From Parcubacteria group bacterium (GTDB lineage Bacteria > Patescibacteriota > Minisyncoccia > Phycocordibacterales > UBA2135): a stretch of DNA of 64,000 nt. The notes below the pieces were generated by a model. It was given only the letters and a program-made list of their open reading frames with translations. It ran no database searches and was not told the DNA's origin. The position numbers and the translations under genes were made by a program. The stretch spans positions 225,044-289,043 of the forward strand of contig JACPBB010000002.1 in assembly GCA_016180525.1 (NCBI GenBank), read 5' to 3'. Positions 8,493 to 50,674 of the stretch are shown here, piece by piece; the first letter of the stretch is position 1, and the number at the start of each line of letters is the position of its first letter.

Positions 8493-8558
8493 CTAAATCA
8501 CTCCGCCAGAGGCGGATGATTGGGCAAGCGTTTTCGCGAAGCGAAAAGCGCTTTAGCC
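8491..8558. repeat. Structured two-hairpin element, copy 1 (CCCTAAATCA-hp-TGATTGGGCAA-hp-TTTAGCC)
   Basis: Conserved linkers shared with 30102-30169 and 39560-39632; stems differ in sequence but still pair. Confidence 0.8.
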
Positions 8559-8831
8559 ACGCTTCGCATGGCTTATTTTGTTTACATAGAAATTTTTCAC
8601 TCGTTGTTTAAATACATTTCCCCACTTAGTTTTAAGGAATCTTTCTCTCTGGAATGCTTCCGATTGAGAAATATATTTTTCTGTATAAATCAGAACGAGA
8701 GGTCTGCGAAATTTTGTTGCAGGTATAAATCCTTTATTATGTCTCGCAACTCTTTTTTGTATATTTCTTGTACAGCCTGTATAAAGTTTTTCATCTTTCT
8801 TGCTGTACAGAATGTAAACAAAATAAGACAT
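8553..8831 (-). CDS. Small GIY-YIG nuclease family protein
   Basis: YFVYILYS...LYTGCT...R...HN.G...TK.RRP..L.Y.E...A..RE..LK motif. Confidence 0.9.
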   Translation of the reverse strand: MSYFVYILYSKKDEKLYTGCTRNIQKRVARHNKGFIPATKFRRPLVLIYTEKYISQSEAFQRERFLKTKWGNVFKQRVKNFYVNKISHAKRG

Positions 8832-20975: not shown

Positions 20976-21365
20976 ATGGATACACAAAAGAAAAAAATTC
21001 TCATTGTTGATGATAACAAAGATTTACGAGGCGTTTTAGTAAATGCTCTCCATGCCGAAAATCTGACGGTTCTTGAGGCGGGAAATGGGGAAGAAGGCCT
21101 TGCTCTGGCGCTTGCCGAGCACCCCGACATGATACTTCTCGATATCGTTATGCCTAAAATGGACGGAGTTACGATGCTTCAGAAATTAAGAAAAGATAAG
21201 TGGGGGCGAGATGCCTGGGTCACCATGCTTACCAATTTAACTGATGCCGAAAAAGTTCACGCTGCCATGGAAGAGGGGGTATATGACTTTTTAGCAAAAA
21301 GTGATTGGGCGCTTGAAGATTTGTTGTCAAAAATACGTCTTAAATTGAATATTCCAACAGGCTAA
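20976..21365 (+). CDS. Single-domain response regulator (receiver)
   Basis: ILIVDDN and PDMILLDIVMPKMDG motifs. Confidence 0.92.
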   Translation: MDTQKKKILIVDDNKDLRGVLVNALHAENLTVLEAGNGEEGLALALAEHPDMILLDIVMPKMDGVTMLQKLRKDKWGRDAWVTMLTNLTDAEKVHAAMEEGVYDFLAKSDWALEDLLSKIRLKLNIPTG

Positions 21366-21439
21366 ATTAACGGCGCACGCACCTTTTATATTTTACACCA
21401 AAACTTGACTAATGAATTATTTTATAGTACAATAACCAT

Positions 21440-21739
21440 ATGTCAAAAGAAAGACCTAACCAAGCTAATCAAAATAAACATGAGCACGTTGCTGAAGGTG
21501 TAAAGCTTTCTCCCGAAGAAATTCAGCATCTTTTAAATAAGTATGGCGAGAGAGGACTTGAAGAGGATCCAGAACATTCTGAGTATTTAAAAATAAGAAA
21601 CACAAGGATTCAGAAGTTAAGCACAATTGGCAGGATTGGTGCAAAAAAAGGAGCTGATGGTCGTCTCATGGGCGGAAAACCAAAAAAAATCGAGCAGAGA
21701 ATAAGAGAGCTCCTTGGTCTTGAGGAAGAAAAATGGTAA
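21440..21739 (+). CDS. Hypothetical protein
   Basis: 99-aa ORF with TTGACT/TACAAT promoter immediately upstream and a terminator downstream. Confidence 0.6.
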   Translation: MSKERPNQANQNKHEHVAEGVKLSPEEIQHLLNKYGERGLEEDPEHSEYLKIRNTRIQKLSTIGRIGAKKGADGRLMGGKPKKIEQRIRELLGLEEEKW

Positions 21740-21798
21740 ATCACTCAAATTCATAATTCAAAACACCTCGTTTTAAACGAGGTGTTTTGAATTATATC

Positions 21799-22025
21799 CA
21801 CACTCCCCTGGATTCGAACCAGGGACCGCAGAGGTATATAAATATATAATTTCTTCGTTCGGTCGAAATATAATAATGTGCTTGTTGGTGTGCGCGCCAG
21901 GATTCGAACCTGGAACCGCAGAGGTATAAGCTCTGTGCTCTACCGTTGAGCTACGCGCACATTTTATATTTCTTCCTCTCTCGAAATTATAAGCTCTGTG
22001 CTCTAACCAACTGAGCTAGGGGTGG
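21799..22025 (-). other. Split tRNA-Ile(UAU)-like gene: 5' half at 21988-22025 and 3' half at 21799-21835, interrupted in the anticodon loop
   Basis: Joining CCACCCCTAGCTCAGTTGGTTAGAGCACAGAGCTTATA to CCTCTGCGGTCCCTGGTTCGAATCCAGGGGAGTGTG gives a cloverleaf with two acceptor-stem mismatches. Confidence 0.7.
21886..21960 (-). tRNA. tRNA-Ile(UAU)
   Basis: Full cloverleaf GTGCGCG...CGCGCAC-A-CCA; anticodon arm CAGAG-CTTATAC-CTCTG. Confidence 0.92.
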
Positions 22026-22084
22026 GTTCATTCATACAATACTATGTATTACTCATTTTTTCAATTCTCAAATATTTAAATTCA

Positions 22085-22133: not shown

Positions 22134-24284
22134 TTATTCAAAATGGATTTTTTCTCCTGTCTCGATCTGTTTAGCAATAAGCGGATATTTTTTAAATGTG
22201 GGATCTTTTGAGATGATATTTTGCGCTTCGGTGCGCGCCGCCTCAACCATTTTTATATTTTTGATTGCCTCCATGCCGATGTCAGAAATACCCCACTGCT
22301 TTCTTCCGGAGAGTTCTCCGGAGCCGCGCATTTCTAAATCAAGTTCCGCAAGTTCAAATCCGCTTTTTGCTTTTTGAATTGCCTTAAGTCGCTCAATTGA
22401 TTTTTTGCTTTTTGTATCCGCAAAAACATAACAATACGCTTGATGGTTGCTCCGCAATACCCGTCCGCGTAACTGATGTAGTTGCGCAAGCCCAAATCGC
22501 TCTGCGCCTTCAATCACAATCATAGTAGCATTTGGAACATTTACACCGACCTCAACAACCGAGGTTGCCACAAGAATATCTATGTTTCCATCGGAAAATT
22601 TTTTCATTATGTTTTCTTTTTCTGCGGGCCGTAACTTGCTGTGGAGAATTTCTATTTCATATTCCGGAAATACTTCTTGTTTCAGTCGTCTTGCTTCTGC
22701 TTTTACCGATTTTGTGTTGAGCGCAAGGAGTTTTTTGGGGTCTGGCTCATCAATTCTCGGACAGATGACATACAACTGCCGGCCTTCTTTGAGGCGCGTG
22801 GCAATTTCTTCATATGCTGCACCTCGTTTATCCGGAGAAATAATTTCCGTAATAATTGGCTTTCTGCCGACTGGCATTTCGTCAAGAAGCGTTAAGTCAA
22901 GATCTCCAAAAACAGTAAGTGCAAGCGTGCGGGGAATAGGGGTCGCAGTCATTGACAGCAAATGCGGTGCCGCGTACACCCCATCGTTTTTTTTGGATAA
23001 TTTGGCTCGCTGCATGGTGCCGAAGCGGTGTTGCTCGTCTATAATAATGAATGCCAAGTGTTTAAACGAAACAGTTTTTTGAATAAGGGCGTGTGTGCCG
23101 ATAAGAATTGGAATTTCTCCGTTTTTTACCCATTTTAAGAGCTGGGCTCGTGAAATATCCGTTGCACTTTTGGGATTTACTTTTGAGGGAAATTTTTTGC
23201 ATCCACTTCCCGTTATAAGACCGATCTGTATGGGCATATGTGAGAAATATTCCATAAAAGATTGAAAGTGTTGCTGTGCCAGAATTTCTGTCGGTGCCAT
23301 ATATGCTATCTGTAAATTTCCAAAATTTTGGCCTTTGGGTTGTGATGTTACGACTGCGTATGCGGTGATTGCCGCAACGGCAGTTTTTCCCGAACCCACG
23401 TCTCCTTCAAGAAGTCTTGACATCGGCTCGTCTTTTTCAAAGTCGGATAAGATTGTTTTAATAGCCGTCTCTTGTGAATTTGTGAGCGTAAAGGGGAATC
23501 TGTCAGAAAATGTTTTTATCTGTTCCCCATTAGATTCAATGGTATATGAGGCATTATTTTTATATTCATGCCGTATTTTTTGTCGTGACAGCTGAATAAA
23601 AAAAACCTCCTCAAACGCGAATCGTTTTCGCGCGGAGATACGATGCGACTCTTTCTGCGGATTATGAATCCATACCAAGGCTGTTTTTAATTGTGGAAGA
23701 TTATATTTTCCTAAAATATTTTTCGGAATTGAGTCTTTTATATCCTCATGCACCTTCTCACGCAACAATTTTTTGATTGCGTGATAAAACCACTTTGAAG
23801 TTATTCCGCGGCTTTCCGGATAGACGGGGTACATCATTGTTGTTCCGCCATCTAACGCGGTATTTTTTTTGCGTGAATGATATGAATGTTCAAATTCTGG
23901 ATTTGCGACATAGAGCTTTCCGTTTCTCTCTCCGATTTTTCCTGAAAACCGCAACTCTACTCCTATTTTTAATTTGTCCGCGATATATGGTTGGTGAAAC
24001 CATAATGCCTTAATTGCCCCAGTGTGATCTCTTATTTTCGCTTCGGTCATTATCATCCTTTTTCTGAATGCTCGGATTTTTTTAACGCTCTCTATCGTGC
24101 CGTGGAAAGTGGCAACGTCTCCCCTCTGGAGAAGGGAGATTAGTTTTTCGTCCGCAACTGATTCGTATCGTGAGGGAAAGTGATACAGTAGATCTATCAT
24201 TGTTACAATTCCCAATTTTTTAAGGGCCGCTTTTTGGTAGCGTGTAAGCCTAAAAATGTTTTCAAGCGCTGTACTCGGGTTCAT
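22134..24284 (-). CDS. recG: ATP-dependent DNA helicase RecG
   Basis: GDVGSGKT, DEQHRFG, MTATPIPRTL and QLHQLRGRV motifs; start reassigned to MNPSTAL. Confidence 0.96.
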   Translation of the reverse strand: MNPSTALENIFRLTRYQKAALKKLGIVTMIDLLYHFPSRYESVADEKLISLLQRGDVATFHGTIESVKKIRAFRKRMIMTEAKIRDHTGAIKALWFHQPYIADKLKIGVELRFSGKIGERNGKLYVANPEFEHSYHSRKKNTALDGGTTMMYPVYPESRGITSKWFYHAIKKLLREKVHEDIKDSIPKNILGKYNLPQLKTALVWIHNPQKESHRISARKRFAFEEVFFIQLSRQKIRHEYKNNASYTIESNGEQIKTFSDRFPFTLTNSQETAIKTILSDFEKDEPMSRLLEGDVGSGKTAVAAITAYAVVTSQPKGQNFGNLQIAYMAPTEILAQQHFQSFMEYFSHMPIQIGLITGSGCKKFPSKVNPKSATDISRAQLLKWVKNGEIPILIGTHALIQKTVSFKHLAFIIIDEQHRFGTMQRAKLSKKNDGVYAAPHLLSMTATPIPRTLALTVFGDLDLTLLDEMPVGRKPIITEIISPDKRGAAYEEIATRLKEGRQLYVICPRIDEPDPKKLLALNTKSVKAEARRLKQEVFPEYEIEILHSKLRPAEKENIMKKFSDGNIDILVATSVVEVGVNVPNATMIVIEGAERFGLAQLHQLRGRVLRSNHQAYCYVFADTKSKKSIERLKAIQKAKSGFELAELDLEMRGSGELSGRKQWGISDIGMEAIKNIKMVEAARTEAQNIISKDPTFKKYPLIAKQIETGEKIHFE

Positions 24285-24400
24285 TTCTAAAGCATATCTT
24301 TTTGGGACTTTTTTGGGAAGTTTACATTTGCTAGTAAGCGCCTTGTCAAAATTCATGCAAAGCATATACTTTCTCATAGAATACAAACAAAAGGAATCTC

Positions 24401-50453: not shown

Positions 50454-50601
50454 TTTTTCAAAATTAAAACCCACCCAGACGGTGGGTTTTTGCATAAAAG
50501 TTAAAAATAAAATATTATGGTATTGAGTGCCGATGTAAGAGAATCTTGCATCGGCGGCACTCGGAGAAAATGAAAACAAGTTTTCATTTTACTCCTCGTT
50601 T

Positions 50602-50674
50602 GCCGATGTAGCTCAGATGGTAGAGCAACTCCATGGTAAGGAGTAGGTCGCCGGTTCAATTCCGGCCATCGGCT
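50602..50674 (+). tRNA. tRNA-Thr(GGU)
   Basis: GCCGATG...CATCGGC cloverleaf, loop ATGGTAA. Confidence 0.92.

Follow-up and report, generated by a model that had tools for sequence, protein, structure and literature searches.

Among described systems the closest is the tRNA-dependent lysogeny of actinobacteriophages, in which insertion breaks an essential tRNA gene and the inserted element carries a complete tRNA of the same isotype; in the accessible parts of that account the element is a whole prophage that encodes a tyrosine integrase and has an attP/attB core of ~10 bp (PMC10865867). Elements of the IS200/IS605 group, e.g. IS608, have subterminal hairpins, insert 3' of a short motif, employ guide base-pairing and form a circular junction (PMC5934647, accessible portion). 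Short hairpin repeats are a further group: REP, GTAG/CGTC repeats and REPINs occur with RAYT transposases (PMC3733652), and SRM/NTS repeats with Ssn GIY-YIG nucleases (PMC11893778); these statements again follow the accessible portions, and the word tRNA is absent from the available main text of the Ssn paper. The tRNA-Thr(UGU) of Lak megaphages has an intron that is predicted, in the available text, to encode a tRNA (10.1101/356790), and the available main text of the Nature paper on huge phages does not contain the word intron (PMC7162821).

The locus described here lies on the minus strand of a stretch of 64,000 nucleotides (the window) from the tiny genome of a groundwater bacterium (G000; 945,633 bases in 5 contigs, 97% complete). 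A 153-nt protein-less insert (no ORF of at least 50 aa) splits a tRNA-Ile(UAU) gene at the TA of its anticodon and carries a second, intact tRNA-Ile(UAU). The insert is probably one copy, here loaded with cargo, of a dispersed repeat of Patescibacteria whose movement likely takes place as single-stranded DNA; the outer tRNA halves are likely a dead scar and not exons. If this is right, hardly any self-rescuing mobile element would be smaller, a likely essential gene being broken and fully replaced within 153 bases. The self-rescuing mini-element is real, recurrent and apparently undescribed; no paper describing the element or its nests was found in the searchable literature, most subscription journals being outside its reach.

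As in tRNA-dependent lysogeny, the insert supplies a same-isotype tRNA for the gene that is broken, if the inner tRNA functions as its intact structure suggests; unlike the prophage with its integrase and attachment core, it is a small hairpin whose nesting is iterated (PMC10865867, accessible portion). It resembles IS608 in its subterminal hairpins, which here covary, in insertion 3' of a motif and, by prediction, in a guide and a circular junction, but there is no tnpA in or adjoining the element, no lagging-strand bias was seen, and the bases that the apparent guide matches are 3' of the TA, one guide serving the two ends, a geometry different from that in the accessible account of IS608 (PMC5934647). 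Like the REP and SRM repeats, which in the available text are acted upon as single-stranded DNA by a trans enzyme (PMC3733652, PMC11893778), it is a short, multi-copy, mostly intergenic hairpin; unlike them it has a longer two-hairpin design, a variable target-matching stem 1 and a gene as cargo, and no GTAG or CGTC tag was seen in it and no linked enzyme gene found. The Lak inserts likewise place a tRNA-like sequence inside a tRNA-gene insert; those, however, are near-identical inserts in phage genes that were read as introns, and neither a hairpin family nor decay is described in the available text (10.1101/356790).

The element is of neither the tRNA-dependent lysogeny nor the IS608 type. 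TA-targeting bacterial MITEs (ERIC, Correia, RUP) are non-autonomous and palindromic with TA at both ends, a feature that the element shares, TA being also part of the definition used by the parser; unlike in MITEs, its termini are not mutual inverted repeats, since the left terminus pairs internally, varies between copies and matches the target, and beyond the partner of the left end there is a second hairpin. The anticodon loop is also interrupted by the 37/38 introns of archaeal and eukaryotic tRNA genes and by bacterial group I tRNA introns. The present insert resembles both in this respect, but its junction is not fixed at 37/38 and has no bulge-helix-bulge, no splicing endonuclease or ligase was found in the genome, and neither a group I core nor a terminal G is present in the insert. 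The designs of integron attC sites, hairpin telomeres and IS607 were provisionally set aside as well, since their motifs are lacking.

Organization of the nested locus

Read along the minus strand, the locus begins with the 5' half of the outer tRNA-Ile(UAU) (22025 to 21990), which was parsed from the sequence as positions 1-35 and ends in CTTA. The left arm of the element follows (21961..21989) and consists of stem 1 (21989-21983), the left strand of a tandem-GA internal loop (21982-21976) and stem 2. The inner tRNA-Ile(UAU) (21886..21960) is carried as cargo in the loop of the long hairpin H1; it has no stem mismatch and an encoded CCA, and it is detected by ARAGORN and by Rfam RF00005 at 73 bits. 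The right arm (21847..21885) contains the stem 2 partner, the right strand of the tandem-GA loop (21861-21855) and the stem 1 partner (21853-21847), which with the TA that follows it forms the proposed target guide, a role suggested by the flank-match test described below. A terminal mini-hairpin, H2 (21837..21846), whose position is conserved across the element family, stands between this internal TA and a terminal TA, and the outer 3' half (21799..21836) extends from position 36 to the discriminator, with no encoded CCA. At the locus as it stands ARAGORN and Rfam call the inner gene and leave the outer tRNA uncalled; with the insert removed the outer tRNA scores 117.9, as compared to 124.1 for the inner.

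The original prediction of an intact tRNA-Ile(UAU) nested in a split tRNA-Ile(UAU) is thus confirmed by the minus-strand sequence, ARAGORN, Rfam and the unitigs of four sequencing runs, and its insert of about 152 nt measures 153 nt (21989-21837). The complementarity that it reported between the insert flanks is real, since the insert folded as DNA gives -25.7 kcal/mol (z -4.86, 0/200 shuffles as good) and the whole locus folded as RNA gives a z of -3.09; the inner flank pairing is real as well, but four bases of the stem claimed for it are in fact the start of the acceptor strand of the inner tRNA itself. The two mismatches ascribed to the outer acceptor stem are present, i.e. two acceptor-strand bases of the outer 3' half break pairs. 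An uninterrupted CCACCCC-type gene, the relative with which the locus was to be compared, is found near recG in a genome of the same family (G007), and because this plain gene has a perfect acceptor stem the two mismatches in the window are likely losses. A plain tRNA-Ile(UAU) gene occupies the corresponding site in many relatives.

Outside the element the upstream neighbor is recG (22134..24386, minus strand, by Pfam), and a RecG-like match lies within 2.5 kb in 50 of the 80 split-gene loci (see below) that have flanks. A promoter-like site upstream of the outer 5' half (22036..22064, minus strand) would drive read-through into the inner tRNA, its match (9/12; one such site found versus 2.0 expected in shuffles) being no better than chance; the inner gene likely uses the resident promoter, since the left arm, at 29 nt, leaves no room for a full one. 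Just downstream of the outer 3' half a near-perfect palindrome (21753..21795, detected as an opposite-strand self-match) may mark the end of transcription, and no terminator-like site was scored there.

The repeated TATA at the two junctions, from which the break had appeared to be placeable at 37/38, holds at the window locus only. The two bases after CTTA are TA in 26 of 50 nests and other bases in 24, these bases change together with the right arm, and the first base of the left-side 36-37 pairs with the right arm in 34/34 type-A nests, in a register fitted to the pairing. Since TA is the only repeat that the two junctions have in common throughout the relatives, the break falls between 33/34 and 35/36, not at 37/38; the TATA repeat of the window is the fixed TA plus a two-base match.

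A dispersed hairpin element and its putative guide

The arms of the insert belong to an element with the order target TA, stem 1, tandem-GA loop, stem 2, loop or cargo, the partner strands, TA, mini-hairpin and TA. Empty copies of it are present at many loci; it also forms tandem arrays, and either of its loops can hold a tRNA. In 18 empty long hairpins taken from the nest loci 89.4% of the cells are paired and 16 of 21 pairs show double changes; none of 500 shuffles was as high and slid controls gave 29-46%. A model (R1) built from these 18 hairpins detects 9 empty copies in the window's genome at E < 1e-6 and copies in 51/101 genomes of the order; a single genome has as many as 30, and empty copies far outnumber loaded ones. 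The 35 copies examined with their flanks are intergenic or at tRNA genes, one being inside a short ORF call, and no Rfam family matched the element arms in the window and 15 related loci. The conserved core is the internal loop, which is able to form two tandem GA pairs; among 34 terminal hairpins 18 have a GNA triloop, one has GNRA and none UNCG. Single-stranded DNA forms stable GNA triloops as well as stable tandem GA pairs, and DNA rather than RNA would appear to be the acting form of the hairpins; G-T pairs are present in the stems, so that folding as RNA is possible as well.

Element copies are also found in antisense orientation in tRNA genes. An empty copy in the window (50546..50610, minus strand; model R1, 55.4 bits, E 1.9e-10) stands antisense at the TA of positions 8-9 of tRNA-Thr(GGU), where stem 1 supplies the first seven bases of the tRNA and the old copy of these lies behind the element. 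Antisense copies at positions 8-9 occur in tRNA-Thr, -Trp, -Lys and -Ala(CGC), stem 1 again rebuilding the acceptor strand, and antisense nests that carry a tRNA interrupt the anticodon of tRNA-Ile(GAU) in two metagenome loci (L342, L322), cases that are rare because a narrow pattern found them in none of 401 genomes of the class. The GA motif would be missing from a transcript of an antisense copy, and this favors DNA as the level at which the element acts. Every UAU nest found has the sense orientation, a count that carries no evidence since the search pattern misses most antisense insertions.

The first bases of the element tend to match the bases that lie behind it. The mean matching prefix is 1.88 nt (n=57) as compared to 1.24 nt in global shuffles (0/10000 as high) and 1.53 nt in within-genome shuffles (2/10000), and matches of at least 4 nt number 11 versus 4.6 in shuffles, significance being overstated because the shuffle tests treat sibling copies as independent. 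From 88 parsed copies 68 had a terminal hairpin call; 11 of these are tandem junctions, and the 57 single or terminal copies were parsed without looking at the flank, an earlier parser having given the same result. The window locus itself has a guide match of only 2 nt. Stem 1 seems to be brought in by the element, because sibling copies keep stem 1 while their flanks differ further out, and at the 11 tandem junctions the terminal hairpin is followed by TA and then by stem 1, the layout predicted for a circle junction.

These matches between first bases and flank point to a built-in target guide, and from the sequence comparisons we infer, as a supported reading, a guide-directed mechanism acting on single-stranded DNA. 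In the simplest form of it the stem 1 partner and the internal TA would base-pair with the target across the cut, the element would be excised as a circle and reinserted 3' of TA, and a putative single-strand nuclease-ligase, host- or trans-encoded, would perform the chemistry. More tentatively, and with rather less than even confidence, the element may represent a new class of protein-less, DNA-guided Patescibacteria mini-transposon, in which one internal guide pairs in turn with its own junction and with the target, few base changes suffice to retarget it, and the tRNA-loaded form homes repeatedly into the same essential gene. If this were true, decoding of AUA by the host would depend upon a 150-base parasite and the putative recombinase would be a programmable single-stranded DNA insertion enzyme. 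The guide-like match offers a direct test of site choice by short hairpin repeats, a question long open for REP-like elements, and points to a putative enzyme.

No mobilizing enzyme was identified among Y1 transposase and GIY-YIG loci or in a search for ORF cargo. The window's genome has no Y1 transposase, and none of 39 Y1 loci has an element within 1.5 kb of the Y1 gene; in one further case (L314) an element is ~1 kb from such a gene. Y1 genes are present in 38 of 50 element-bearing genomes versus 24 of 50 others (Fisher p 0.007, with kin not independent). The Y1 transposases of copy-rich genomes were rejected as mobilizers since their own palindromes differ from the element; at loci L215-L224 Y1 transposase-like ORFs of 210-250 aa are each flanked by their own short palindromes. 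An element is found at 1 of 30 GIY-YIG loci, and a link to these genes was likewise discarded, as they are near-universal (100/101 genomes) and some copy-rich genomes have only one weak match. The window contains a stand-alone gene for a 92-aa GIY-YIG nuclease (8553-8831, minus strand) directly upstream of tmRNA, and its genome has four more small GIY-YIG genes, one of which, at C1:362886, has an intact tRNA-Phe on one side and a partial one on the other; it is possible that these small genes are Ssn-like. An autonomous version, i.e. an arm pair around an ORF within 3.5 kb, was found neither in the window's genome or the related loci examined for it nor among 102 metagenome loci, many of which are chance matches. 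Lagging-strand bias, estimated from local GC skew with low power, was not seen (5/10 copies in the window's genome, 15/26 elsewhere), and three patterns gave no match in viral contigs.

Other small hairpins and nests occur in the same genome. A short hairpin motif that combines tandem GA with a loop of GAA is present at 22 sites, mostly intergenic and near start codons, two of which (C1:263933 and C1:281270) fall inside the window; it shares structural features with the element and in relatives is found inserted in the element's terminal hairpin. Further tRNA-in-tRNA layouts involve tRNA-Pro(UGG) (C1:152545-152775, plus strand) and tRNA-Gly(CCC) (C1:358560-358800, minus strand), with arms that are complementary but without the terminal TA hairpin of the element.

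The nest family and alternative readings

A search pattern consisting of the tRNA-Ile(UAU) 3' half without the preceding CT was found in 23/401 genomes of the order and 0 times in the control, one match (G048) being to an intact gene. Among species representatives it identified 91 loci, with record titles nearly all of Patescibacteria type. Together with the window, 53 of these parse as full nests and 31 have an inner tRNA and the 3' half with no clean 5' half, the left arm being kept behind a damaged 5' half in 23 of the 31; for the other 8 a distance of 400 nt contains no inner tRNA, 5 of them being cut by a contig edge and 3 being off-target matches. None of the 91 loci is a split gene that clearly lacks an intact neighbor. 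By a length rule the cargo tRNA is in the long-hairpin loop in 35/53 nests, as in the window, and in the terminal-hairpin loop in 18/53, which includes tandem arrays. Nests reach a depth of three or more layers, as at L076, L063 and L066.

The outer copies decay. After 3 mis-paired rows were dropped from the 53, a stem mismatch or changed loop is seen in 17/50 outer copies versus 0/50 inner; outer stems are intact in 33/50, a figure raised by a search pattern that favors intact 3' halves. These family-wide data support the alternative raised in the original prediction, in which a mini-element with inverted repeats disrupts a gene and brings the replacement tRNA with it, the outer copy then decaying. 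Nests of this kind record the order of insertion and show the turnover of tRNA genes in reduced genomes. In the outer layers of L076, L066 and L074 further small palindromic insertions are found in the D and T loops. At two loci, L021 (G044) and L020 (G006), tRNA-Ile(UAU) genes are flanked by the stem 2 inverted repeat alone, and these genes likely remain from older nests that have lost their outer layers.

It might be asked whether the loaded cassettes travel at all, since only the empty element could be mobile and the resident tRNA copied into its loop in place by template switch or recombination. Such copying would account for the 16/53 parsed nests in which outer and inner tRNA share both acceptor and anticodon stems, for the great excess of empty over loaded copies, and for some loci (L023, L117, L141 and L173) at which an intact gene stands beside a copy broken by an empty element. 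We nevertheless consider it unlikely, because both stems differ between layers in 21/53 nests, layers of different tRNA types alternate in deep nests (L076, L063), and the left arm of the window is identical at 27 of 29 bases to that of a middle layer in another genus (G002); the identical layers would also result if a cassette reinserted into the tRNA that it carries.

Splicing is a still less probable explanation of the split gene, and the insert is most likely not a spliced intron. By this account the precursor would be spliced to yield the outer tRNA and the released piece trimmed to the inner one, for which it can be said that the arms bring the outer halves together in the RNA fold, that the rejoined outer tRNA scores well (117.9), that a cut at 33/34 would leave the changes at the left junction within the insert, and that the Lak phage tRNA introns are predicted, in the accessible text, to encode tRNA (10.1101/356790). 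The intron at the canonical 37/38 site that had been offered as one of two readings is not supported: the conserved junction is located elsewhere, inspection shows no bulge-helix-bulge at 37/38, and neither the splicing endonuclease (PF01974) nor RtcB (PF01139) was found in a genome that is 97% complete. Splicing is also difficult to reconcile with decay of the outer copies, with antisense copies in tRNA genes, the transcripts of which would be without the GA motif, and with the intact neighbor that accompanies the split genes of the 91 loci. A self-splicing group I or II intron was rejected, as no intron or ribozyme in Rfam matched the window at gathering score or 15 related loci up to E 5, and thus no catalytic core. 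Group I introns have reportedly been found in tRNA genes of Patescibacteria; the present insert has no such core. For annotation it follows that tRNA-in-tRNA layouts in Patescibacteria should not default to introns.

Marginally less probable again is a host-kept RNA design, which might serve as a scaffold for processing or as a decoy that diverts anticodon nucleases. The nests recur in many families, their arms tightly extend the acceptor stem, and the tRNA-Pro and tRNA-Gly layouts of the same genome, with other arms, could be taken in its favor; against it, the distribution is patchy (23/401), close kin have plain genes, and the outer layers show decay and secondary insertions. The mobile-element reading is preferred over each of these.

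The assembly supports the locus as given. In run X1 a single unitig covers 21000-22015 without difference, bridging the 3' junction fully and extending only ~27 letters past the 5' junction, just under a 31-letter rule; in runs X2-X4 pieces overlap across the 5' junction, bridged by ~27-29 letters only, again without difference. All four runs are from one study and are possibly the source of this DNA. At 97% likeness none of them contains an uninterrupted (empty-site) allele of this organism; a joint that skips the insert, seen in all four at 85% likeness, is gone at 97% and was read as tRNAs of other organisms and not as an empty allele. An assembly chimera joining two similar tRNA genes, which the short repeats, the common origin of the runs and the short bridge at the 5' junction might suggest, is hardly credible given independent unitig assembly of four runs with no differences, an arm sequence that is unique and covarying, and the same layout in dozens of other assemblies.

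tRNA-Ile(UAU) as target and cargo

The choice of gene may be related to the decoding of AUA. TilS was not found in the window's genome and is above cut-off in 0/101 genomes; the window's genome has only two CAU tRNAs and uses 3789 AUA codons among 189085. With TilS missing, AUA codons in use and only two CAU tRNAs, a tRNA with the UAU anticodon is likely needed. The anticodon loop of tRNA-Ile(UAU) holds TATA and is thus a ready target. An empty element in the UAU anticodon would likely be lethal without TilS, and the copies that persist would be those carrying, or sitting beside, a replacement tRNA; the replacement would in turn bring a fresh target and so give rise to Russian-doll nests.

A second, odd tRNA with a UAU anticodon is found on another contig of the same genome (C5:101811-101903, minus strand; L418), and the nested inner tRNA may consequently not be the sole reader of AUA. 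It is 93 nt in length, its variable arm is long and position 37 is a G, and it adjoins a second tRNA-Arg(UCU) and small ORFs between dihydrouridine synthase-like and dnaX-like genes, so named by eye. In another genome (G048; L061/L140) an intact tRNA-Ile(UAU)-like gene has A at position 33 in place of the usual U.
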